Shown in pieces: positions 5,793-30,720 of a stretch of 32,000 nucleotides of DNA. The translations under genes were made by a program, and so were the position numbers. Source of the DNA: Geotalea uraniireducens Rf4 (GTDB lineage: Bacteria > Desulfobacterota > Desulfuromonadia > Geobacterales > Geobacteraceae); the NCBI RefSeq assembly GCF_000016745.1, contig NC_009483.1, forward strand, positions 2,760,001-2,792,000. Direction: 5' to 3'. Every line of letters begins with the position of its first letter. Position 1 is the first letter of the stretch. The notes below the pieces were generated by a model that was given only the letters and a program-made list of their open reading frames with translations, was not told the DNA's origin and ran no database searches.

Positions 5793-8407
5793 ACCATCCT
5801 TTTTAATTCATCCAGCAGATTCAGGGCTTCCAGCGGGGTAAGCGTAGTCACATCCATACCTTTCAACCTTTTTCGCAGCATATCTTCTCCGCTGTCAAAC
5901 AACGACAACTGCGAAGCGGGTGCCGAACCAGCGCTCTTTTTGCCGCGGGCGATGCGGGGAATGCCCTCTTCAGCGAACTCCCCCTTTTCGAGATTCTGTA
6001 AAATCTCCTTTGCCCGCTCGATGACTTCAAGGGGAAGACCTGCCAGCCGTGCCACCTGAATGCCGTAAGAATGGGATGCGCCACCGGACACTATCTTGCG
6101 GAGAAAAATGATCTGCTCGTTCCATTCCTTTACTGCGATGTTGAAATTTTTGATCCGCTTGCGCGTCACCGCAAGTTCGGTCAATTCATGGTAATGGGTG
6201 GCGAAGAGGGTTTTGGCGGCATGTTTGTCGTTATCATGAAGAAATTCGGCAACTGCCCAGGCAATGGAAACACCGTCAAATGTGGAGGTGCCGCGGCCGA
6301 TCTCGTCGAGGATCACGAGGCTTTTGGGCGTTGCATGACGCAGAATGTTGGCGCTTTCCATCATCTCCACCATGAAGGTGGACTGCCCGCGTGCAAGGTT
6401 ATCGGAGGCGCCAACCCGGGTGAATATGCGGTCCACCAGGCTGATATGGGCCTCTGTTGCCGGGACGAAACTCCCCATCTGCGCCATAAGGGTGATCAAC
6501 GCCACCTGACGCATAAATGTCGACTTGCCGGCCATGTTCGGTCCGGTTATGATGATGAGCTGGTTCTCCCCGTTATCAAGCAAGGTGTCGTTGGGAACGA
6601 ATCGTTCCCCCTGGTGCATCGCCTCGATGACCGGATGCCTCCCCTCACTGATGAAGAGGGTAGTACCGTCATCGACTAGCGGTCGGCAGTAATTGCGCTC
6701 ATGGGCCAGTTCAGCCAGAGAAGCAAGCACGTCCAGTGTCGCCAGACAATCGGCGGTACGGGCGACGATTTCGCCATGGCCGGTGACCGTCTCGCGGATT
6801 TCCTGAAAAAGAGAAAATTCCAGTTCCCTGATACGATCTTCCGCACCGAGGACCTTGTCTTCGTATTCTTTCAGCTCCGGGGTGATATAGCGCTCGGCAT
6901 TGGCCAGGGTCTGCTTGCGTATGTAATCGGCAGGGATTGAAGTCAGGTTCGTCTTGGTCACTTCGATGTAATAACCGAAGACCTTGTTATAACGGATTTT
7001 CAGGGAGTTTATACCGGTACGCCCTTTTTCCTGCGCCTCCAGACGGGCGATGAACCCCTTCCCTTCACGGCTGATGGCCCGCAGTTCATCCAGTTCCGCG
7101 TTGTAACCGTCGGCGATGATCCCGCCATCCCTCAGGACGAACGGCGGGTTCTCGACGATACCGCCTGCAATGAGCCCCACCAGATCCGGCAACGGGTTGA
7201 GCCCCTCGTTCAGTCTGCGCAGGAGAACAGACGAAGAAGAAGCCAACAGCTCCTTAATGCCGGGAATCCTCGCCAGCGACTCTTTCATTGCAACCAGATC
7301 CTTGGCGCCGGCACTGGCAAGACTGATCCTGCCGTTCAACCGTTCCAGGTCATAGACGCCGTTCAACAGGAAAACAAGTGCTGTGCGGCGGGAAGGATCT
7401 TGTACAAACTCCTCGATCGCATCCTGACGTTCCGTTATACTCTGAATGGTTACCAGTGGATAGTTAATCCACTGCTTCATCTTGCGTCCACCCATGGCAG
7501 TGGTGGTACGATCCATGAGACCGAGCAGCGACCCCTTACGCTTCCCCTCCGCAAGGGTAGCGGTCAGCTCCAGGTTTCTCCTCGTCGACTCGTCCAGAAC
7601 CAGATACTCCCTGTTCGTATAAGGAATGATCGAATTGACGTGCCCGGCCCGGCCCTTCTGGGTCTCCTGGAGATAGTGAAGAACCGCGCAGATCGCATAT
7701 AATCCGGTGTTTAAACCATCGCATCCAAGGGCAGAGGGTGAGGCGCCGCCGAAATGGCTGCCTATCAGCCGCTTGCAGTAATCGAGGTCATAAACCCAGT
7801 CGTCGACAAAGGTCGTGGCAAGCCCGGCTGTGACCGGCATCAACTCCTTCATGCGCCCGTTTTCACGAAAAACAGCCGGCAGGATGATTTCCCGCGGCTT
7901 CACGCACGCCACCTCGGCAACGGCCGCATCAAAACCATCCAATTCGGTAACCCTGAACTCGCCGGTGGAAAGGTCCAGGTAGGAGAGCCCCCAGGTCGTG
8001 GCGTCGTCACAGTAGAGGGAGAGGAGGTAGTTGTTCTCCTTCGGCGACAGGTTCGAGCTGTCGACAACCAGGCCGGGGGTGATCACCTTCACCACTTCAC
8101 GCCTGACAATCCCTTTGACGCTCTTGGGATCTTCAACCTGCTCGCAGATCGCGACCTTTTCGCCGGCTTCAATCAGTTTCGCAATATAGGGGGTAGCGGA
8201 ATGATAAGGTATGCCGCAGAGCGGGACATCTGCGCCATCGGAGTTTTTATTGCGGGAAGTAAGGGTGATGTCAAGGATACGCGAAGCTTTTACCGCATCA
8301 TCGAGAAACATCTCGTAGAAGTCGCCAAGGCGGAAAAAGAGAATTGCATCGGGATAGCCGGCTTTTATCTCCAGGTACTGACGCATCATTGGTGTGAGTT
8401 GAGACAT
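5789..8407 (-). CDS. mutS: DNA mismatch repair protein MutS
   Basis: 872 aa with N-terminus [34 protein letters not shown] and Walker A motif GPNMAGKST. Confidence 0.95.
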
Positions 8408-10271: not shown

Positions 10272-11930
10272 CTACTGCTGCTCTATGGGCAGGACCAGGC
10301 AGAAGGTGCTGCCTTCGCCCGGCCGGCTCTCCACCTCGATGGTGCCGTTGTGGGACTCGGCGATCCCCAGGCTGACCGAAAGGCCCAGGCCGGTCCCTTT
10401 AGTGGCCTCTTTGCTGGTGTAGAAAGGGGTAAAAATTTTCGACATGTTTTCCGGGGCGATGCCGCTGCCGTTATCGCTCACACTGAGCACGGCCCATCTC
10501 TTTTCATCCTCCACCCGCAGCGAAGTGGCCACTTCGATGATTTTTTCCTTCCGTTCCACATCCGCCAGGGCATCGCGGGCGTTAATCAGAAAGTTGGTCA
10601 GCACCTGCTGGATCTGCGGTCCATTGGCAGTTACCCTCGGCAGATTGACATCGAACTGTTCGACAATCCTGATCTGGCTTCGGTTGATCTGGTATTGAAT
10701 CATGCTCAGCATTCGTTCCGCTTCGGCATTCAGGTCGATATCCGTCACCGGCGGCTGGTTCTGCCGGGAAAAGGTCAACAGGTTCTGGACGATCCGTTTG
10801 CAGCGCAGGCCGGAGTTGATGATATCTTCGAGCACTTCGGCTTTATCAAATTGCGCATCTTGTTGCAGATCCCTGGCCAGCATCTGTGCCGTGCCGATGA
10901 TGACGGTCATGGGGTTGTTCAGCTCATGGGCCACCCCGGCCGCCATCTCGCCGAGTGCGGCCAGTTTGGCTGAATTGACCAGCTGAGCCTCCATCTTGGT
11001 CTTCTGAGTGACGTCCTTGAGGATGATGGTCACCGCTGACAGCTGCTTGTCTTCGTTAAACACCGGATAGTAGGACAGGTCAAGAACCAGCCCCGACTCG
11101 GTCTGCCAGCGCTGGAAAACCGGTTGGCCGTTTTTCTTGATTTCCTCGATGGGGCAGTTCGGGCAGATCCCGTCATGGCCATGGAGTTTGACGAAACACT
11201 TGTTGCTCAGCGCCTTATTCCAGGAATCGCTCATCTCGCGGGGAAGCCGGTCGTTATGGAGCAGGACGTTGTAATCTGTGTCGATGAGGAAGATCGGGTC
11301 GGTCACGGCCTTGAAGGTCTCTTCCCATTCCTTCTTTGCCCGCGAGACCTGCTTGTAGAGTCTGGCGTTCTGAATGCTTATGGACAGCTGGTCGGCCAGA
11401 TGCTGAATAAAGCTCAGATCCGCCTCGCTGTATGCAGAATCGAGGATGCTGGCAACAACGAGGGCGCCGATCACCTCATCCCGCTTGAACATCGGGGCAA
11501 TCGCCATCGCCCGGAGCGGACCCGGGTAGCCCGGATTGATCCGGATGTGGCTGAGCTCATCCGGCGTCAGATTGAAGATGCCGGCCTTTTTCTGCCGGAT
11601 GACCTTCAGGGAGGGGGAATGGGCGGGGAAGTTCTCGATTTTGCAGAAGTCCACGGGCATCATCGCCTTGAGCGACAGATCGCCGTTGCGGACCGTCACC
11701 AGCCCGAGGAAGTCACAGGGGAGCGTCTGCGGCAGCTTGGAAAAGGCCCGTTCGATGATGTCGGGGGTCGACATGTCGATGTTGATGTCCCGGGCGAGCT
11801 GATGCAGGATTTCCAGACGGCTGTTCTGCTTGAGAACCTCCTGGCTGCGCTTTTTCAGCTCGACGTAATAGTTGAGCTTCGAGGAGTCGACCCCGGTCAA
11901 TTGTTCGAGCAGCTTTTCCCTGTTTTCCAC
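10272..11930 (-). CDS. sensor histidine kinase (GAF, PAS, HisKA and HATPase_c domains)
   Basis: The H-box is AAGVAHELNNPMTVI, and the C-terminal ATPase has GSGI and GTGLGLSVS motifs. The ORF is open to a TTG at 11969. I prefer the GTG at 11930, which has a GAGGAA RBS 6 nt upstream. Confidence 0.85.
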   Translation of the reverse strand: MENREKLLEQLTGVDSSKLNYYVELKKRSQEVLKQNSRLEILHQLARDINIDMSTPDIIERAFSKLPQTLPCDFLGLVTVRNGDLSLKAMMPVDFCKIENFPAHSPSLKVIRQKKAGIFNLTPDELSHIRINPGYPGPLRAMAIAPMFKRDEVIGALVVASILDSAYSEADLSFIQHLADQLSISIQNARLYKQVSRAKKEWEETFKAVTDPIFLIDTDYNVLLHNDRLPREMSDSWNKALSNKCFVKLHGHDGICPNCPIEEIKKNGQPVFQRWQTESGLVLDLSYYPVFNEDKQLSAVTIILKDVTQKTKMEAQLVNSAKLAALGEMAAGVAHELNNPMTVIIGTAQMLARDLQQDAQFDKAEVLEDIINSGLRCKRIVQNLLTFSRQNQPPVTDIDLNAEAERMLSMIQYQINRSQIRIVEQFDVNLPRVTANGPQIQQVLTNFLINARDALADVERKEKIIEVATSLRVEDEKRWAVLSVSDNGSGIAPENMSKIFTPFYTSKEATKGTGLGLSVSLGIAESHNGTIEVESRPGEGSTFCLVLPIEQQ

Positions 11931-14864: not shown

Positions 14865-15038
14865 TTGAAATTTCATAATTCATCCTTCATACTTGCCGTA
14901 AACTCCTTGACAACCTCCTCTATGGGTGTATGAATGTTAGTAAATTTTATGTAGTACCCGGGAGGGGAGATGGGGTGCCGGAGCGCAGGTTCAGAGAGCC
15001 GCTTGGTCAGCGTGGAAGCTGATGGAGCGGCTTTTTTT
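14865..15038 (+). promoter_or_regulatory. promoter-leader-terminator module, copy 1, upstream of the CFI-box operon
   Basis: Three TTCAT direct repeats lie at 7-bp spacing (14872, 14879, 14886). TTGACA (14907-14912), a 16-nt spacer and TATGAAT (14929-14935) follow. A ~100-nt leader then ends in a terminator. The module is repeated at 17754-17934. Confidence 0.55.
14997..15038 (+). terminator. rho-independent terminator/attenuator inside leader copy 1
   Basis: AGCCGCU-UGG-UCAGC-guggaa-GCUGA-UGG-AGCGGCU followed by U7. Confidence 0.65.
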
Positions 15039-15171
15039 CTGGTCCAAGGTGGTGCCCTGGAAGCCTGACCCCGCTGGCCGCCCCTGTTTCGTGTCCCCGT
15101 CGGAGTAAAGCCTGCCAATGGAAAGATGGAAAAGAAGAAGATCCTTGAAGAAGGGGATGGGTGAATTCACC

Positions 15172-17013
15172 ATGTCTATGACTTTTAAATACATTAGCCG
15201 GTTTTTTGCGGCGCTAGCTGTTCTCCTCGTCGTTTCCGTCCCGAAAGCGCTCTGGGCGGAGGATCTGATCGTCGAGCATAACCCTACCGATCCCACCCAT
15301 TTCTCCTCCATCCAGGCGGCCATCGACCACGCCGCCATTATTTTGAGTAACCCGTCCTTGATCAACACCAATTTCCGCGTGATCGTCAAGGCCGATCCCG
15401 TTCCCTATACCGGACCCATCACGCCCATCAGCAACGTGCCGATCATCGGCACCAGTACCGCCGGAACCTTCATTTCCGGCATCGGAGCAGGAACGCTCAT
15501 CAGCTTGAGCAACGTCTCCTCGGTGGCGATCCAGAACTTTACCTTCCGGGGTGCCCTCATCGGGATTACCGTCGCGAACAGTTCAGCCATCGGCATCACT
15601 AACATCGTGTTTCAACTGGGCACAGCCGGCACTGCCGTTCAGGTACAGAACTCACCGGCTACCTCTATCATCAACAACACCTTTTTCGGCAACGGCACCG
15701 CCATCAGTACCGATTCGAACATCACCATCACCAATAACATCTTTTCCACCAACACCACGGCAATTTCGACCCAACCAACCCTGACGCAACTTTCCTATAA
15801 TGATTATTTCAACAACGGAACGAACGGAGTCACCAATCTGGACGCCCATTCCATCCCCAGCTCTCTGGTTGCGAATGCGAACCCCCTCTTTGTGAACGCG
15901 GGCAGTGACTTTCATCTGCAGCCCGGATCGCCCTGTATCAATGCCGGAAATCCTCTGTATCCCAATTCCTTCGACAGCACCACCTTCGACATGGGAGCCT
16001 ACGGCGGGCCGAACAGCGACATCCTGCTTGCCACGGTGACGGGCCTGGTTTCCTCGCTGACCACACCGTCAACCATTGCGCTCAGATGGAACCCAACCAG
16101 CAACAGCAAGGTGACAGCATACCGGGTCTACTATGGGACTTCCTCCCGGAATTACAACGGCACGCAGGCCGCCGAAGGACCTTCTCCATTGACGGTGCCA
16201 GTGGGAACCACCAGCGCGAACCTGAGCGGGCTCCCTCTCACGGGGCCGGCCGTACCGGCGGTTCCGACGCTCACCGCGACCGCTCCCCTGAACCAGGCCC
16301 TCCAACTCTCCTGGACCACCGTTTCCGGGGCGACGGGGTACCGGATTTTCTACAGCACCGCCACCTTCGATGCATCCTCGCTCCCCGCAACCTTCGTCGA
16401 TGTCGACGGCGGCACCGTGTCGTCCTTCCGGCTTTCCGGATTGACCAACGGCACGACCTATTTCGTGGCGGTCTCCGCCCTGGCACAGACCACGTTTTTC
16501 GCCGCGGTTACCGTCGTCATCAACAGCACCGTCGCTTCCAACCCCGGAAGCGCCAACGAAAGCTCCTTTTCGCAGGAGACCAGCCAGCGGGTCGGCCCGG
16601 TCCAGATGAGCGGCATATCGAACCTCTTGAGCGATTTCCCGGAGGCCATCGCCCCCTTTCCCAACCTCAAGAGCAAGGGGTGCTTCATTGCCACCGCAGC
16701 GTACGGTTTCTACTCGGCCCCGCAGGTGCAGGCGCTGCGCGACTTCAGGGACCGCTATCTCATGACCAACGCGCCCGGCAGGGCCTTCGTCGACTGGTAC
16801 TACCGTTACGGGCCGCGCGGCGCTCATTTCATCAATGCCCATCCCTGCCTCAAGCCGCTGGTCCGGATCGCGCTCTTCCCCCTGGTGTACGGCTCGATGC
16901 TGCTCCTGTACGCATCGGGCGGTGTCAAAATCGCCGTGCTGATCTGCGCGGCACTGGCGTCCGTCATTCTTGTGCAGAGAAAAAAGCTGCTGGCATTGGG
17001 AGGCACGCGTTGA
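15172..17013 (+). CDS. secreted surface protein with right-handed parallel beta-helix repeats, two fibronectin type III domains and a C-terminal [10 protein letters not shown] (CFI-box-type) anchor domain
   Basis: The signal peptide is [29 protein letters not shown]. PbH1-like repeats include [32 protein letters not shown]. The beta-helix C-cap is [16 protein letters not shown] ... FDMGAYGG. The FN3 domains include TAYRVYYG and TGYRIFYS ... TTYFVAVSA. The C-terminus reads [29 protein letters not shown]...[10 protein letters not shown]... followed by a TM helix. The ORF is open from 15118, and the start at 15172 was chosen on signal-peptide logic. Confidence 0.8.
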
Positions 17014-17678
17014 AGAGATTGTTACTGGCACTGGCGCTTCTGTTCATACCGGCCGTTGCCCTGGCCGCAGAGGGGAGCAGCGACCGTCCGCACTGGTCGC
17101 TGGAGCTGAAGGGAGGCGTCTTTTTCCCCAACCTGTCCCGCTGGTCGGATTTTTACGGCTCGAGTTTTACCTCGGAGTTCGGCGGCGCTCTGGCCTACAA
17201 GGTCAGGCGCGAGATCGAGGTGGGGATCGAAGGGACCTACGTGAGCGCCGACGGGAACGGGCAAGCGCCGCTGCATGCGCAGGTTGCGGGAGGGGGCCAG
17301 GTGGCAGCCGGACAGGTGAGCTACGAACTCTTTCCGCTCAACGTCTTCGTCCTCGCGCGCGGGGTCTTCAGCGAGGATCAGCCGCTGGTGCCCTATCTCG
17401 GTGGTGGGTGGACCAGGATGTTCTATCGGGAAGAGGTGAAAGGACAGGGGAAGGTGCAGGGCTCGACCAACGGCTTCCATGTCAGGGGGGGGATCCAGTT
17501 CCTGCTGGACCGTATCGATGCGGACGCAGCGAGAAATCTGGACCGCGACTACCATGTGCGCCACACTTATTTCTTCACCGAAGCGAAATACACTCGCGCC
17601 ACTGCCGACACCAATCCTTCCGGGTCCGTCAACCTTGGGGGTGTCAGTTATCTGGGTGGATTGCTCTTCGAGTTTTAA
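17010..17678 (+). CDS. small outer-membrane beta-barrel protein, translationally coupled to the upstream gene
   Basis: The TTG start at 17010 overlaps the upstream TGA (TTGA), with a GGGAGG RBS 6 nt upstream. The signal peptide is [22 protein letters not shown]. Alternating beta-strand patterns run to the C-terminal GGLLFEF. The 530-aa track ORF (16086-17678) is real only from 17010 on. Confidence 0.8.
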
Positions 17679-17753
17679 AAAGTGACGAATTCAGTACTGA
17701 GCCAAGGTGGGAGATTAATGAACAATACAATTATGAAGTATGAAGGTTGAATG

Positions 17754-17934
17754 TTGAAATTTCATAATTCATCCTTCATACTTTTTTTCAATCTCCTTGA
17801 CGATGCCACCTCTCGGGGTGTATGAATGTGAGTAATTTTTTATGCATGTACCGGGGAGGGGCGATGGGATGCCAGAGTGCAGGTTCAAAAAGCCGTTTGG
17901 TCAGTGTGGAAGCTGATGGAGCGGCTTTTATTGT
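17754..17934 (+). promoter_or_regulatory. promoter-leader-terminator module, copy 2, with no downstream cargo gene
   Basis: It is near-identical to 14865-15038, including the TTCAT x3 repeats, TTGACG/TATGAAT and the terminator (17891-17934). The -35/-10 spacer is 2 nt longer and the U-tract is interrupted (UUUUAUUG). Confidence 0.5.
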
Positions 17935-18016
17935 TCTTAATGGAGAAATAGACAAGATGTCCCCACCGCCCTTTTCTGAAAAAGACTATGGTTCATCCTG
18001 GCACGGCACTGGAAAA

Positions 18017-18155
18017 GCATATAATATTAGATGCCAATTGGATAATAGAATAAATGAAAAAACAGGCAAAAGCATATAATATTAGATACCTTACAGGCAT
18101 ATAATACTAGATGCTGGCATATAGTATTATAAACAAGTATATAATAATAGATGCC
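18017..18155 (+). repeat. array of five imperfect 19-bp AT-rich quasi-palindromic direct repeats
   Basis: GCATATAATATTAGATGCC (18017), GCATATAATATTAGATACC (18072), GCATATAATACTAGATGCT (18097), GCATATAGTATTATAAACA (18117) and GTATATAATAATAGATGCC (18137). A TGCTCAA-n7-TTGAGCA hairpin follows at 18166-18186. Confidence 0.7.
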
Positions 18156-18234
18156 ACATGCTAACTGCTCAATAACACGTTGAGCAAATAATATAAAGAA
18201 ATTAGGATGTTACGCCACTTTATGAGGCTAACGA

Positions 18235-19410
18235 ATGACATTACAGCAGATCATAGCGCGTGGATACGAACAGAGAACAGCGAACAAGCCGTTGCCACCG
18301 TATATGTGGAAGGCCGCCGGACGAATCTCGGTTTGTCGGACGTCAACTCTTGGCGGCCACGTGCAGGCGTGCCCTGAGGGGCACGTTGAAAGGCACTGGT
18401 ACAACTCCTGCCGGCACCGCGCCTGTCCCGTCTGCAACTATACTGCCACCGAACGATGGCTTGACAGCCAGAAAGAACGAATCCTCAACTGCGAACATTT
18501 TCATGTTGTTTTCACGCTGGACAGTGCGCTTGATCGCCTCTGGCTCGTCAATGTCCGGGCCATGACCAACATTCTTTTCCAGTCGGCCCGCGACACGCTC
18601 TTTGAACTTTTGGGTGACGATAAATACCTGGGCGCCGAACCGGGCGTGATCATGGCGCGCCATACCTGGGGGCAGATGCTCGGCCTTCATCCGCATGTTC
18701 ACTGCCTGGTATCGGGGGGCGGCCTGACCCAGAGCGGTGAATGGCGCAGTGTCGCCAACGGCTATCTGCTACCGGTGCGGGTCGTGCGCTCCCTGTTCTG
18801 CGGCAAGTTCCTCGATGCAATTCGCCGCGGAGTTGAGCGGGCAGAGCTGACCGTGCCGGATGGCGAGCGACCGCAGCAGGTTTTGAACCTGCTCAACAAG
18901 CTCGGCCGCAAGAAGTGGAATGTCTGCATCCGGGAGCGCTACGCGCACGGCAACGGTGTCTTGACCTACCTCGGCCGGTACTTGCGCGGCGGAGCCATTT
19001 CGAACCGCCGAATCATTTCGTCCGACGAAGAGCAGGTGCGTTTCCGCTACAAGGATTATCGCGAAGAAAGTGAGAGCGGCGGCAAGAAGTGCAAAACGAT
19101 GGAGCTTAGCGTCAATGACTTTGTGCGCCGGGTGCTGCTGCATGTCCCGGAACCGGGCCACAAGGTGGTGCGTTCATACGGATTGTACGCGGGAAGCCGG
19201 CGCCAGGCCCTTGACCGCTGCCGGGAATTACTCGGGCAAGAACCGGTACAGGAGCCGAAGGCGCGCACATGGCAGGAATGCGTGGCGGGACTGGGAGAGA
19301 CAAACCCCGGCCAATGCCCGGTATGCGGCTCACGGCTGGTGCAACGGGAGGTGTTTCGTCCGGAGTTCAGGGGCGAGACAAGGAAGTTTCCAATGAAAGA
19401 GGCGGCATGA
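18235..19410 (+). CDS. IS91-family (HUH Y2, rolling-circle) transposase
   Basis: 391 aa with an N-terminal zinc-binding region (CRTSTLGGHVQACPEGHVERHWYNSCRHRACPVC) and HUH-like HFHVVFT ... HPHVHCLVSGGGL. I could not define the element ends. Confidence 0.85.
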   Translation: MTLQQIIARGYEQRTANKPLPPYMWKAAGRISVCRTSTLGGHVQACPEGHVERHWYNSCRHRACPVCNYTATERWLDSQKERILNCEHFHVVFTLDSALDRLWLVNVRAMTNILFQSARDTLFELLGDDKYLGAEPGVIMARHTWGQMLGLHPHVHCLVSGGGLTQSGEWRSVANGYLLPVRVVRSLFCGKFLDAIRRGVERAELTVPDGERPQQVLNLLNKLGRKKWNVCIRERYAHGNGVLTYLGRYLRGGAISNRRIISSDEEQVRFRYKDYREESESGGKKCKTMELSVNDFVRRVLLHVPEPGHKVVRSYGLYAGSRRQALDRCRELLGQEPVQEPKARTWQECVAGLGETNPGQCPVCGSRLVQREVFRPEFRGETRKFPMKEAA

Positions 19411-20229: not shown

Positions 20230-21571
20230 GGCTCTGCAACGAATCAAGTGGGTAGAGGGAATAGCGACTTTAGGTTGAGCTTGCCTGCAACCAGATAAGC
20301 CATGCAGATCAAGTTGTCAGGATTCCGATAGCCTCGTGCCCGAGTTTTGGCTGATTGAATTAGGCTGTTGATGCCCTCAATGAAGCCGCTAGTCAGGCCG
20401 CTTTCAAAATGTGCCAGAATGCCATCCCAATGCTCTTTTACAGATTCGGCCATGTTCTTGATGAGTTGGATTGAGCTTGCGGCGGCTTTCCGATGCCATT
20501 TGGTCAACAGGGTTTCTGCCTCCGTTCGGCTTGAAGCAAAATAGACGTTCTGAAGGTTCAGCTTGTGCATGTAAGCTTCCGTACTCCTTAAGCTTTGACT
20601 GGTGATAATGGCATCCAGGCGCTGTTCCTCTTCCGGTGTCAGGTTCTCTGGATTTTTGAGGAACAGGTTTCTGCTCTTTTTCAGGATTTCAGGAAATAAC
20701 CTGGCTTCTTGAGCCCTTATCTTACTAAGCTTATCGTTCATAAGCTTGATGACGTGGAATTTATCGAAGGTGACCACGGCATGGGGCAACTGCTCTTTGA
20801 CACCCTTTATGAATGCCTTGGACATGTCAATAGCAGCGTCTGTGATGCTATCAGGATCGCCGCCATGTGACTTAAGGTCCGCGACGAAGCTCTTGACTGT
20901 TTCGTTGTCCTTTCCCGTCGTGCCGAACAAGAGCTTATGCATGTCGAGGTCGAAGAAGAAGGTGACGAATTTCTCGTCATGACTGCGCCCGGCAAAGGTT
21001 TCATCCGCACCGACCCTCTTCACCTCGGAGAAGTCTTCTGCGGCCCTTGCCTTCTCGACATAGGATTGAATCAACCGCCATAGACGGGTATCGGTAACGG
21101 CAAACAGCCTGCTCATGACCTTCACCGGCAAATCACGAGCCATGGTCATGGCCAGGGCCTCAAACAGCAGCGTAAATCCTGAGCCTGCGCGAGCCCAGGG
21201 TACCTGGACCAACTTCACGCCGCAGTCGCTGTTAGGGCACTTTACCCGTGGAACACGCGCATGAAGGTAGGCTTCGTACTGGAAGAAATTCAGATGCCGC
21301 CACTCTTTCTCCGTGGTGTCATGGACTGGTGACAACGTTCCGCAGACCGGACAGGGAAAGGTGGCTCCCCGCTGGAAGTCGATGGTTATGTCCAAACGAC
21401 TTGACTTCTTGTTGAAGTCAACAGAGGTAACCTTCCACGGGATGGCAATTCCAAGAGCAGCACCAAAAAGATCTTCAGGATTCATAGCGATTACTAACCT
21501 CCAGGCTGAGTGATGGTGGCCTATCTTACATCAACCCGGCCCAGGCTACCCACTCAATTCGTCGAGGAGCC
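20230..21571 (-). mobile_element. ISL3-family insertion sequence (1342 bp) with an 8-bp target-site duplication
   Basis: The terminal IRs are GGCTCTGCAACGAATCAAGTGGGTAG (left) and the reverse complement of CTACCCACTCAATTCGTCGAGGAGCC (right). The TSD GCCTCTCT lies at 20222-20229 and 21572-21579. Confidence 0.9.
20244..21485 (-). CDS. ISL3-family transposase
   Basis: 413 aa with an N-terminal zinc-finger region (FPCPVCG...RVKCPNSDCG) and a DDE domain, sitting between the IRs above. Confidence 0.9.
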   Translation of the reverse strand: MNPEDLFGAALGIAIPWKVTSVDFNKKSSRLDITIDFQRGATFPCPVCGTLSPVHDTTEKEWRHLNFFQYEAYLHARVPRVKCPNSDCGVKLVQVPWARAGSGFTLLFEALAMTMARDLPVKVMSRLFAVTDTRLWRLIQSYVEKARAAEDFSEVKRVGADETFAGRSHDEKFVTFFFDLDMHKLLFGTTGKDNETVKSFVADLKSHGGDPDSITDAAIDMSKAFIKGVKEQLPHAVVTFDKFHVIKLMNDKLSKIRAQEARLFPEILKKSRNLFLKNPENLTPEEEQRLDAIITSQSLRSTEAYMHKLNLQNVYFASSRTEAETLLTKWHRKAAASSIQLIKNMAESVKEHWDGILAHFESGLTSGFIEGINSLIQSAKTRARGYRNPDNLICMAYLVAGKLNLKSLFPLPT

Positions 21572-25357: not shown

Positions 25358-25650
25358 AAAGAACACCTCTTAATTAGTTTATCACCTTACTACACAATAC
25401 ATTATAGCATACAAAGGCTTGAGCACTCGTTTTCCCCTCAAAGCGATAAGGTATATATCCCATTAGAAAGACCTGAGGCCGTAATGGAATCTTCTACGGG
25501 AATGTCAAACACGGCCGTATTTGTTCCCTTGACGGGATTTATAATGGTGGTAAGCTTTTTGTGATTATTATTTTCTAACAATTACTTTCCGACAAAGCCA
25601 AACCCTTCGCGAGGAGGGGGCGGAAAGCGGCGGGTCTTCGCGACGAAGAT

Positions 25651-25700
25651 GGCCGAGCTGCCGAGGGACGGGTCCTTCAGGTGGGCTCGGCCTTTTTATT
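25651..25700 (+). terminator. orphan rho-independent terminator
   Basis: GGCCGAGC ... (inner GAGGGA/UCCUUC) ... GCTCGGCC followed by TTTTTATTT. No plus-strand CDS lies upstream. Confidence 0.55.
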
Positions 25701-26550: not shown

Positions 26551-27885
26551 CAGCATTGTCCGGTTTGGTCTTTGCAAGGTTCTTTGAGAATGTAAAAAAG
26601 TTGTAAAATCAGCGTTATACCGCATTATTTGCTTGACTTTGAGTAAAAAAACGGTGGTCCGCACTCGTAACTATCCAATATTACAGGAGTTACGATATGC
26701 GACCGTTCAAACGACTGAAACAAAGACGAAAATCACGCGCTTTCAAATTGCTTCTTACCCCGATTTTTGAGAGATTCAAGTCAGATAATGAACTTGAATC
26801 CAGGGGGTATCGCCCGTTGCAAATGACTTTCGATGATCAGCTAAAAGCCCTGATCTTTTATCACTTGGAAGAGTTCTCTTCCGGGAGCGAACTTCTCCAG
26901 GCGCTGGATCAGGATGACTTCGCCAAGGAATGTGTTGCTCCCCCCAAGGGAATCAAAAAGAGCTCTTTCTTTGAGGCAATCAACAACCGTGGTCTTGAAC
27001 AGCTTTCCGAGGTATTCGGGCATCTTGTCAAGCAAGCAGGCAGAGTGCTTCCCGATGAATATGCTCACCTTGGCAATCTGGTATCCATAGACGGTTCTTT
27101 GATAGATGCTGTTCTATCTATGGAATGGGCAGATTACCGAAGCGGCTCTAAGAAGGCCAAGGCCCATATCGGCTTCGATATCAACCGTGGTATTCCAAGG
27201 AAGATATTCCTGACCGACGGTAAAGAGGGTGAGCGCCCCTTTGTTGATAAGATCATCGACAAAGGCGAAACCGGTGTCATGGATCGTGGGTATCAGTCTC
27301 ATAATCACTTTGACCAGTGGCAGGCCGCCGAGAAGTTTTTTGTCTGCCGTATCAGGGAGAATACACACAAAACCGTCATCAGAGAGAATGCCGTAAATCC
27401 TGACAGTATTGTCTTCTATGACCAGATAGTACTTCTCGGCACCAAAGGTATAAACCAGACTGAGAAAGAGCTGCGCCTTGTTGGTTACCGTATTGACGGC
27501 AAGGACTACTGGGTAGCAACCAACAGATACGACCTGACGGCTGAAGAAGTGGCCCAGGTTTATAAACTGCGCTGGAACATAGAGACCTTCTTCGGTTGGT
27601 GGAAACGCCACCTAAAGGTGTATCACCTGATTGCCAGAAGCGAATATGGTCTCATGGTTCAAATACTTGGTGGTCTCATCACCTATCTGCTGCTAGCCAT
27701 CTATTGCCGTGAGCAGCACCAGGAGCCAGTCAGCATTAGCAGGGTACGAGAATTACGCAATCAGATTGCAAATGAAGCAGCAGCCGAACAGCAGAGCCGT
27801 CGCACAAGAATACAAGGTAACTCAAACAAAATTAGACAGTTGAAACGTAAGAAACGTCGTGCAAAAACCTAACCGGAAGTTACTG
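26551..27885 (+). mobile_element. IS4-family insertion sequence (1335 bp) with a 9-bp TSD
   Basis: IRL is CAGCATTGTCCGGTTTGGTCTTTGCA. IRR is the reverse complement of TGCAAAAACCTAACCGGAAGTTACTG. The TSD ACTAAAGGA lies at 26542-26550 and 27886-27894. Confidence 0.85.
26697..27872 (+). CDS. IS4-family DDE transposase
   Basis: 391 aa with the Y-(2)-R-(3)-E-(6)-K signature in YKLRWNIETFFGWWK and DDE residues in the SIDGS and VMDRGY contexts. Confidence 0.85.
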   Translation: MRPFKRLKQRRKSRAFKLLLTPIFERFKSDNELESRGYRPLQMTFDDQLKALIFYHLEEFSSGSELLQALDQDDFAKECVAPPKGIKKSSFFEAINNRGLEQLSEVFGHLVKQAGRVLPDEYAHLGNLVSIDGSLIDAVLSMEWADYRSGSKKAKAHIGFDINRGIPRKIFLTDGKEGERPFVDKIIDKGETGVMDRGYQSHNHFDQWQAAEKFFVCRIRENTHKTVIRENAVNPDSIVFYDQIVLLGTKGINQTEKELRLVGYRIDGKDYWVATNRYDLTAEEVAQVYKLRWNIETFFGWWKRHLKVYHLIARSEYGLMVQILGGLITYLLLAIYCREQHQEPVSISRVRELRNQIANEAAAEQQSRRTRIQGNSNKIRQLKRKKRRAKT

Positions 27886-29683: not shown

Positions 29684-30301
29684 TCAATTGAAGAAATACC
29701 GCGCGCCGAACGTCATGGAAAAGTTCATGGGATCGAAGTTGCCGATTTTATCCCCACCTAACCTTATATCCGCATCGGGGGCAAGCACCACTTTTGCCTG
29801 ACCGGTCAGGGCCAGTTGCTTCATAACGAAGTAATCCACCCCGCCGGCCGCGTGCACGCCGACGACGGTATCCAAGTCCGCTTTTACCCCATCGTCGCGC
29901 GTGAAGCCGTTGACAAGGATATCCAGTCCGGCGCCTGCATAGGGGGTCAGATGCGCTGTCGGTTCGTTGAAGCGATACTGCACCCCGAGGGAGATGTTGT
30001 TGGTTTCGAAATTGCCTACCCTATCCCCGCCGATGCTGCCGTTGAAATCGGTATGGGTGATATCCAGCTCAGCGGCGATGTTCTTGTTTATGCCGTAGAT
30101 GAAGCCGCCACCGCCGACGAAACCGGTATCAGTGTCGACATTAAATGTGGGAGAAGCGGAGGTATCCTCACTGTCCGCAGGGACCAGAAAACCGATCCGC
30201 CCGGTAACGCCCACTTTTCCCGCGATGTTCTCCGCACAGGCGGTTCCTGCCATAAGGGCCACAGCCGCAACGCAACTGATCATAACGCACAATCTTTTCA
30301 T
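29684..30301 (-). CDS. outer-membrane beta-barrel protein (OmpW/OMP_b-brl type)
   Basis: The ATG at 30301 follows a GGAGGA RBS. The signal peptide is MKRLCVMISCVAAVALMAGTACA. Alternating strands run to the C-terminal GARYFFN. The upstream part of the track ORF (to 30478) has no coding features. Confidence 0.8.
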   Translation of the reverse strand: MKRLCVMISCVAAVALMAGTACAENIAGKVGVTGRIGFLVPADSEDTSASPTFNVDTDTGFVGGGGFIYGINKNIAAELDITHTDFNGSIGGDRVGNFETNNISLGVQYRFNEPTAHLTPYAGAGLDILVNGFTRDDGVKADLDTVVGVHAAGGVDYFVMKQLALTGQAKVVLAPDADIRLGGDKIGNFDPMNFSMTFGARYFFN

Positions 30302-30476
30302 ATCTTTCCTCCTGTCATTGACATTGTTTATATTATTTTCTGTTTTTTCCGCGCACTTTGCGCGGAAGTTCACCCTGTCCGTCTGCCGCGAAAACCGGCG
30401 ATTCCTGCATCCACCGCAGACAGATGTAACCGTGTACGTGTACCGCTTCACCACCTCCCTTCTGCCGATTTTCCAC

Positions 30477-30526
30477 AAAAAAAAGCCGGGTTGCCGAATA
30501 TCGTCTGATATTTCGGCAACCCGGCT
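30477..30526 (-). terminator. strong rho-independent terminator
   Basis: The minus strand reads AGCCGGGTTGCCGAAATAT-cagacg-ATATTCGGCAACCCGGCT (one bulged base) followed by T8. Confidence 0.8.
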
Positions 30527-30720
30527 GTCTGGCTTGAGACCCTTTAGGCTTTCCGCCCCATCCTCACGGATGGTTTAGTATTATCGTCTACCAACTGCAC
30601 GTGCTCATCTGTATTTCGTAACGCGGTACTGTTCTTACCAAAGAACCGCGCCGGATGTCAATGAAAAACACATTACACCCTCCCCCCACCCCCTCCCATC
30701 AAGGGAGTGGAGCTTTAAAG

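Follow-up and report, generated by a model that had tools for sequence, protein, structure and literature searches.

The sibling small regulatory RNAs (sRNAs) Qrr1-5, PrrF1/2, OmrA/B and AbcR1/2 are about 100 nt long, are transcribed from regulated promoters with a regulator site upstream, carry a conserved single-stranded stretch before a strong U-tailed terminator, and exist as several paralogues, sometimes in tandem. A module that resembles them in all these respects occurs twice in the 32,000-nt stretch of the Geotalea uraniireducens Rf4 genome analysed here (the window; NC_009483.1, positions 2,760,001 to 2,792,000, forward strand), once upstream of a gene for a CFI-box-CTERM protein (the CFI-box gene) and once downstream of it. 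The RNA of the module, however, has no sequence or Rfam relationship to these siblings, is G-rich and Shine-Dalgarno (SD)-like where they are C/U-rich and anti-SD, and ends in a terminator whose sequence is unusually conserved. The GEMM-I riboswitches of Geobacter are alike in that a leader and a terminator precede many unrelated genes. In contrast to them, the module matches no riboswitch model and has no covariation-backed multi-helix aptamer, it is the terminator and not the 5' domain that is most conserved, and the module has a conserved promoter and operator of its own.

We regard each module, with a probability of about 0.5, as an autonomous sRNA gene whose family occurs in part of the Geobacteraceae and whose product measures about 95-100 nt; a translation-coupled attenuator ranks second, as a rather less probable reading. 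Judged from its sequence, the RNA is an uncatalogued small-RNA transcription unit of the Geobacteraceae with a clade-specific heptad operator. Its anatomy, its conservation, its presence in multiple copies and its independence from any particular neighbour gene are matters of direct observation. For Geobacter and related bacteria, which serve as models of electroactivity and metal reduction, few regulatory RNAs beyond riboswitches are on record, and the family would add to them a new post-transcriptional or attenuation regulator, together with a transcription factor to be sought. Should it be merely one more sRNA without an assigned role, its value would lie in a new family for Rfam-type catalogues.

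A duplicated promoter-RNA-terminator unit

According to the original prediction, made from the letters of the window, the module is duplicated and combines TTCAT direct repeats at 7-bp phasing, a near-consensus promoter and a G-rich leader of about 100 nt that ends in a two-tier terminator with a U7 tract. Sequence comparison and folding bear this out. The segment 14863-15038 (copy 1) aligns with 17752-17934 (copy 2), both on the + strand, as are all features of the two copies given here. In a self-comparison of the window the copies share an identical 30-nt block, TTGAAATTTCATAATTCATCCTTCATACTT; their RNA parts are 88% identical over 85 nt, and the similarity ends directly past the T-run. The heptad pattern is present at both modules: TTCATNNTTCATNNTTCAT, with up to two mismatches, has seven matches in the window, where 0.16 would be expected by chance, and every one of them lies at a module. 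The operator of copy 1 (14865-14893), which lies within the 30-nt identical block, consists of a TGAAATTTCA centre and three TTCAT heptads; at copy 2 the TGAAATTTCA centre is part of a 48-bp palindrome of ATGAA/TTCAT heptads (17736-17783), with 24-nt arms that are 88% complementary. The promoters were read from the sequence. That of copy 1 (14907-14935) has the predicted arrangement, TTGACA at 14907-14912, a 16-nt spacer and TATGAA(T) at 14929-14935, and is missing from the output of a strict consensus promoter scan because its -10 hexamer lacks the final T; that of copy 2 (17797-17827) comprises TTGACG, an 18-nt spacer and TATGAA(T).

The copy 1 RNA, of about 98 nt from its inferred transcription start (14941-15038; covariance-model match 14954-15039, 104.9 bits), holds a G-rich loop with the SD-like GGGAGGGGAG (14960-14969), an AUG (14970-14972) and the conserved linker GCAGGUUCA. 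Its two-tier intrinsic terminator (14993-15038) has a GC core at 14998-15031, with a GUGGAA hexaloop (15012-15017) and G bulges at 15005 and 15024, and the U7 tract at 15032-15038. The copy 2 RNA, again from an inferred start (17835-17932; covariance-model match 17848-17933, 100.6 bits), has its AUG at 17864-17866, its terminator core at 17892-17925 and the U-tract UUUUAUU at 17926-17932. These two copies are all that the covariance model finds within the window. Relative to shuffled sequence, folding is strong both for the terminator (-30.9 kcal/mol, z -4.4, for copy 1; -25.5 kcal/mol, z -5.1, for copy 2) and for the whole RNA (-43.9 kcal/mol, z -4.5, and -34.2 kcal/mol, z -3.0, respectively). 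As had been claimed, the two stem differences between the terminators are both C-to-U changes facing a G.

The absence of any recognisable riboswitch core was confirmed by an Rfam 15 covariance-model scan of the window, which gives nothing over 14941-15038 or 17835-17932 even at E<=10 and no match to CsrB, CsrC, RsmX, RsmY or RsmZ on the module; the sole matches at the Rfam gathering score in the window are two c-di-GMP-I riboswitches away from the modules. The module sequence is absent from the supplements of Geobacter genome papers that list multicopy intergenic sequences. Moreover, searches of plasmids and phages with blastn and a scan of viral contigs gave zero matches, and there is therefore no evidence for a plasmid or phage element.

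The family in the Geobacteraceae

Homologues are present outside this locus, in other Geobacteraceae genomes and metagenomes, with at least about 25 copies and often two or three per locus; the lack of homologues that would have told against the original prediction is thus not borne out. A scan with exact 20-mers of one genome per species found the RNA twice on a single contig of Geobacter sp. L1geo and also in a Geobacterales metagenome-assembled genome (MAG) and a Geobacteraceae MAG, and a gapped-pattern scan of metagenomes, most raw matches of which are due to chance, gave at least about 15 distinct copies among the matches listed. Additional copies (L125b, L048a, L048b, L109-3', L132_A and L132_B; L numbers denote loci) were found by proximity and through protein-anchored loci. 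True copies score 72-105 bits with the covariance model, and the consensus RNA reads GUGCCCGG-GAGGGGnGAUGGGAUG-CCGGAGUGCAGGUUCAGAGAGCCGCUUGGUCAGyGUGGAAGCUGAUGGAGCGGCU(U)n.

The promoter region (..CCGAACUCCTTGACAc, a 16-18-nt spacer, GGGTGTATGw) is kept in 18 of 23 copies, with TTGAC at about -50 in 18/23 and the GGGTGTATG -10 region conserved throughout the family, and the heptad operator in 8/23, all in one clade. Compared with L009, a related MAG, the RNA is 94% identical over 69 nt and the neighbouring coding gene 86% over 868 nt; this higher conservation of the RNA points to purifying selection on it. In L008 the RNA is kept (92 bits) without a promoter, immediately past a stop codon. The A-type copies (window copy 2, L132_A and the L109 3' fragment) are followed by a conserved non-coding flank with promoter-like and operator-like repeats. 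At L109 a heptad operator, GGTTGAAATTTCATAATTCATCCTTCATCC, stands alone at 2588-2626, without the RNA and directly upstream of an unrelated 121-aa open reading frame (ORF), which hints at a wider regulon of the putative heptad regulator.

Independence from neighbouring genes

The genes 3' of the copies are unrelated and include those for CFI-box, NfeD+SPFH, ATPase_2/AAA, PvuRts1I-like (restriction-like), DUF4365, DUF4145, MNT-HEPN and cytochrome c proteins. Three copies face convergent genes, for an integron integrase (L009), an AAA ATPase (L040) and apgM (L037), and L082 has no gene within 1 kb of its copy. Recurrence beside unrelated genes makes an undescribed small regulatory RNA likelier than a dedicated leader. 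Thus, of the cis-regulatory RNA first proposed, the promoter-RNA-terminator unit outside Rfam stands, but a dedicated leader is not supported, the genes beside the copies being unrelated, convergent or absent. Nor is the element dedicated to the CFI-box gene. The RNA lies 5' of that gene only in close relatives, L132 (95% identity) and L062, and is absent upstream of the CFI-box homologues at 75%, 74% and 69% identity (L134-L136); a dedicated CFI-box leader was rejected for want of the RNA at these more distant loci. Linkage to the conserved 372-aa neighbour was also rejected, as it holds in the window, L132 and L009 but fails in L137 and L138. By its sequence, the module combines a promoter and terminator of its own with neighbour-independent conservation, two marks of a stand-alone RNA gene, and has no coding signal.

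As a stand-alone gene, the module would work as follows. A sigma-70-type promoter (TTGACA, 16-18-nt spacer, GGGTGTATGw) would drive the RNA and, in the clade of the window, the TTCAT/ATGAA heptad operator at about -45 to -95 would serve a putative DNA-binding regulator. The RNA consists of an A/U-rich 5' end, a short helix closing the purine-rich loop GAGGGGnGAUGGGAUG, the single-stranded linker GCAGGUUCA and the conserved intrinsic terminator. Released at the terminator, it may act in trans, either as a protein-binding RNA or through base pairing by its linker or loop, and the strong terminator would limit transcription into whichever gene sits 3'.

Some loci carry further detail. The L009 integron integrase gene (432-1796, + strand of the locus; TIGR02249, 359 bits) stops 32 nt short of the RNA copy, which spans 1826-1911. 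L048 has three tandem RNA copies within 1 kb (6590-7570), copy b being directly followed by copy c; the first breaks off at AGAGAGCCG, where it is joined to a nucleotidyltransferase (MNT)-HEPN pair, and the second has a degenerate loop and U-tract. In L002/L084, L125 and L030, from three related strains, an orthologous RNA copy with about 130 nt of common 3' flank is followed by three different genes, for an unknown 306-aa protein, a PvuRts1I-like protein and a DUF4365 protein, and this is a hypervariable cargo site of the defence-island type.

Structure, targets and the points against a stand-alone RNA

In a model-fitted alignment of 25 copies, pairing in the terminator reaches 96%; one-sided variation affects eight of its pairs and two-sided variation none, and the one-sided changes, C-G to U-G and G-C to G-U, mostly keep the pairing through G-U. 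A 5-bp helix (CCGG/CCGG plus extensions) that closes the purine-rich loop is 69% paired, with three pairs changed on both sides, for example UUCGG/CUGAA in L118. RNAalifold recovered the terminator alone and gave no compensatory pairs, and no complementarity that could form an antiterminator is apparent by inspection. The structure rests on thermodynamics and on wobble-preserving changes, not on covariation, support from which, suggested earlier as a check, did not emerge.

Several observations weigh against a stand-alone sRNA. The terminator shows no compensatory double change among the 25 copies, and the overall covariation is weak, 0.152 against 0.134 in shuffled alignments, with 6 of 500 shuffles reaching 0.152. 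That the loop looks invariant is an artefact of ascertainment, since its sequence was built into the two scans that gathered the copies; independently found copies have GUAGAA, UAUUGA, UAUGGA and CUUGGA terminator loops. The best-conserved bases of the 5' domain are an SD-like GGGAGG and, spaced so as to allow translation, an AUG, a pattern unusual for a purely non-coding, trans-acting RNA. In several copies the next gene begins so near the U-tract that its transcription needs read-through: at L109, NfeD starts about 29 nt past the U-tract, and in L048a the MNT gene is joined without a gap to the RNA's 5' half. Finally, searches of the window for the complement of the linker and of the G-rich loop gave nothing convincing as a target. 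The best complement, CCCATTCCCCCTCCC (11609-11623, - strand), lies on the mRNA strand of the GAF histidine-kinase gene and has one mismatch to the G-rich loop; with nine matches to the complement of this loop at up to three mismatches, against 4.4 expected, it may well be due to chance.

Mosaic copies and a proposed exchange of cargo

A comparison with L132, a close relative whose proteins are 95% identical, bears on how the two copies of the window arose. The window has the order 372-aa gene (pointing away from copy 1), copy 1, CFI-box gene, outer-membrane barrel gene, copy 2, insertion sequence (IS) region and adenosine deaminase gene. L132 has a 380-aa gene (pointing away from copy A), copy A, a 183-aa gene, a HigBA-like pair, copy B and then the CFI-box, barrel and adenosine deaminase genes; it lacks the IS region, and its two RNA copies are ordered differently from those of the window. 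From the -35 onward, window copy 1 resembles L132_B (98%, 92% and 95% over three successive segments). The far-upstream segment of copy 2 also resembles L132_B (68%), while from the -35 onward and in the 3' flank copy 2 resembles L132_A (89% and 69%). These segment identities show a mosaic of the window and L132 copies, and on the evidence of the two genomes recombination between paralogous copies best accounts for the duplication in the window. A circle carrying the region upstream of B, the B RNA, the CFI-box gene and the barrel gene may have recombined into the promoter/operator of copy A, in a Campbell-type insertion, and the 30-nt identical block would then be the crossover zone.

Other loci point the same way. 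L109 has a full copy, NfeD-SPFH, and then a degenerate, hairpin-only copy with the A-type flank; from this pattern and from the split copy and the tandem copies of L048, the copies would act as recombination junctions for accessory cargo, and the module would mark the places where strains exchange accessory and defence genes. The insertion hot spots at tRNA and tmRNA genes are similar: there, too, variable accessory or defence cargo adjoins a small RNA gene, the insert can be followed by a degenerate duplicate of the 3' part alone (as in L109) and an integrase can lie beside one copy (as in L009). The module differs from them in that the duplication in the window spans the whole gene and its promoter, in that the crossovers fall in the promoter/operator, and in that most loci have no linked integrase. 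It is conceivable, though doubtful, that the module is a portable, regulator-controlled promoter-RNA-terminator junction at which accessory and defence cassettes are exchanged by recombination between copies in a loosely integron-like manner, with an RNA that both gates the expression of the cassettes, by terminator read-through sensitive to translation, and acts in trans, possibly as an antagonist of Geobacter CsrA.

Alternative readings of the module

The AUG within the RNA opens two further readings, in one of which the peptide matters and in the other only its translation. The original prediction had raised a leader peptide and was right about both its ATG, which lies at 14970 behind GGGAGGGGAG, and its sequence; of the codons that differ between the window copies four are synonymous, as stated, but seven differ, not six. 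Intact behind a strong SD in about 12/21 copies (the ATG lies at -42 relative to the loop, behind GGGAGGGG), and with several differences synonymous or conservative, the ORF could encode a small protein (MGCRSAGSESRLVSVEADGAAFF...). The frame is broken, however, in about 8/21 copies. L001 and the closest orthologue, L132_B, carry frameshifts (that of L132_B is a 2-nt deletion); L118 has a UGA at codon 4, created by changes that compensate one another in the RNA helix; L040 and L016 have a UAG at codon 9; and in L105, L075, L048c and L125b stops fall within the hairpin. Variable columns number 10, 11 and 12 at the three codon positions, with neither codon periodicity nor a third-position excess, and where the ORF is open it crosses the terminator and U-tract without a stop, to end in unrelated C-termini. 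A conserved peptide was rejected for its broken frame and lack of codon periodicity, and we consider a small protein very improbable. It is the act of translation that would count in a portable promoter-attenuator of the pyrBI/pyrE type, in which a ribosome following closely on the polymerase into the terminator blocks the hairpin and lets transcription enter the cargo gene, and poor translation of the leader leads to termination. In favour of such a mechanism, the same open frame meets no stop up to the 3' end of the transcript; the SD-like GGGAGG and AUGG, invariant or nearly so in two family alignments (A3 and A4), are the most conserved positions of the 5' domain, and a ribosome starting at the AUG would meet the hairpin in about 17/20 copies, whichever frame is open. 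At L109 the stop of the leader ORF overlaps the start of NfeD (AUGA), 29 nt past the U-tract. The strict consensus scan finds no sigma-70-like promoter between 15038 and the CFI-box gene, and the order RNA, leader, CFI-box gene is retained in L132 and L062; L048c, by contrast, has its own TTGACA-N17-TAAAAC promoter between terminator and next gene. A co-oriented gene lies 25-215 nt downstream in at least 12 of 15 scorable copies, but this bias is not significant, since about 70% of neighbouring bacterial genes are co-oriented in any case. Against an attenuator, some copies have a convergent gene, another copy of the RNA or nothing in front of them, stops occur at codon 4 (L118) and codon 9 (L040, L016), and the terminator is more conserved in sequence than the supposed sensor region; nor was an antiterminator structure found. 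The pyrBI and rph-pyrE attenuators of E. coli share with the module the promoter, the leader ORF running into an intrinsic terminator and the gene downstream, whereas in the module the ORF is often broken or truncated, there is no U-rich pause region, and the downstream genes are unrelated, convergent or absent. We therefore place the attenuator behind the stand-alone sRNA, as a tentative second choice.

If each module is a gene for a stand-alone sRNA, one possible partner is CsrA/RsmA, which the RNA would titrate through GGA/GGAUG motifs in its purine-rich loop and its terminator loop, the palindromic operator then resembling a GacA/UvrY box. RsmY, RsmZ and CsrB carry about one GGA motif per 20 nt; the module RNA, with four to seven in about 100 nt, reaches a similar density and is like them in size, in its intrinsic terminator, in having more than one paralogue and in a palindromic site upstream at about -75. 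L001 has four GGAUG motifs within 26 nt and is enriched in GGA (p=0.004), and a GGGAU, GGAAU or AGGAU loop motif is retained in about 17/20 copies. Corrected for G content, however, the enrichment is about 2-fold, and in dinucleotide shuffles, with p values of 0.004-0.27 across copies, it is non-significant in four of six (p 0.03-0.27). The GGA of the terminator loop is lost in independently found copies (GUAGAA, UAUUGA), AUGGAG is not conserved (GGGG, GUGG, UUGAG, UUAAG), and motif positions vary. No CsrA-antagonist sRNA has been characterised in the Geobacter literature (PMC11934962, PMC13407953), which leaves room for one, but Geobacter CsrA is of the FliW-partnered type with a C-terminal extension (PMC11934962, PMC13407953). 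Elsewhere, FliW-type CsrA is not known to be controlled by sRNAs. A machine-learning study predicted three candidates for such an sRNA in G. sulfurreducens, whose sequences are given as images only (Fakhry et al., PMC5568370). A CsrA-titrating role thus seems improbable, although, if true, it would answer a question left explicitly open by recent Geobacter papers. We are equally sceptical of the view that the element is first of all a site of recombination or attachment, or the relic end of a mobile element, in which the RNA is incidental and its conservation due to recombination-driven homogenisation. The two window and two L132 copies are mutually mosaic, L109 has a degenerate, hairpin-only copy past a two-gene insert and L048 a copy interrupted by an MNT-HEPN insert, the cargo is of the defence, toxin-antitoxin or accessory type, an integron integrase gene ends close to the L009 copy, and IS91 adjoins copy 2. 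A promoter and terminator conserved in a fixed orientation nevertheless favour a transcribed product, the crossovers fall in the promoter/operator block and not at a single defined core site, and plasmid, phage and viral collections hold no match. The hairpin has no attC-like R boxes (GTTRRRY/RYYYAAC), and inspection of its flanks shows only GTTC or GTTG past the U-tract; an integron attC/attI site was rejected by this inspection, there being no AAC/GTTRRR pair.

Surroundings of the module in the window

The CFI-box gene, the cargo 3' of copy 1, encodes a beta-helix/fn3 protein and is placed at 15157-17013 (+ strand) because the public gene call has 618 aa; depending on the start chosen (15118, 15157 or 15173), it begins 80-135 nt past the terminator, close to the 80-130 nt first given. 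The leader between the two contains a small second hairpin (UCCAAGG..CCCUGGA, 15043-15062, + strand), which belongs to the leader shared 5' of the CFI-box gene; L132_B, L062 and L016 retain this hairpin, the differences being A-C/A-U and A-U/G-U. The CFI-box gene overlaps by 4 nt the gene for an MXAN_2562-family outer-membrane beta-barrel (17010-17678, + strand), and in several Geomonas-like relatives the two are fused into single proteins of about 830 aa (P0008, P0010 and P0016).

Copy 2 lies 3' of the barrel gene and is followed by about 230 nt of non-coding DNA and then by the IS91 (18235-19410) and ISL3 (20244-21485, - strand) transposase genes. This DNA is the conserved flank of the A-type copies (17933-18160, + strand), found also after L132_A and after the 3'-only copy of L109. 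It contains five near-palindromes of about 18 nt, GCATATAATATTAGATGC, at 18013-18155, which recur after the L109 3'-only copy (about 1900-1990) and lie outside the neighbouring IS91; they look like operator sites.

The flanking core genes encode MutS, a sigma-54 response regulator, the GAF histidine kinase, an ErcA-like alcohol dehydrogenase and the 372-aa protein on one side and a CinA-like protein on the other. The 372-aa and CinA-like genes adjoin in L009, and the window from about 14.4 to 30.8 kb (about 16 kb) is therefore taken as a variable region. ARAGORN finds no tRNA or tmRNA in the window. Besides the modules, the variable region carries an IS4 transposase gene (26697-27872), a PIN-domain gene, the adenosine deaminase gene and both c-di-GMP-I riboswitch aptamers, at 25588-25666 (+ strand, 66.3 bits) and 30512-30589 (- strand, 47.5 bits), each above the Rfam gathering threshold. 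The second of these is upstream of a gene for an OmpW-like outer-membrane barrel (29684-30478, - strand).

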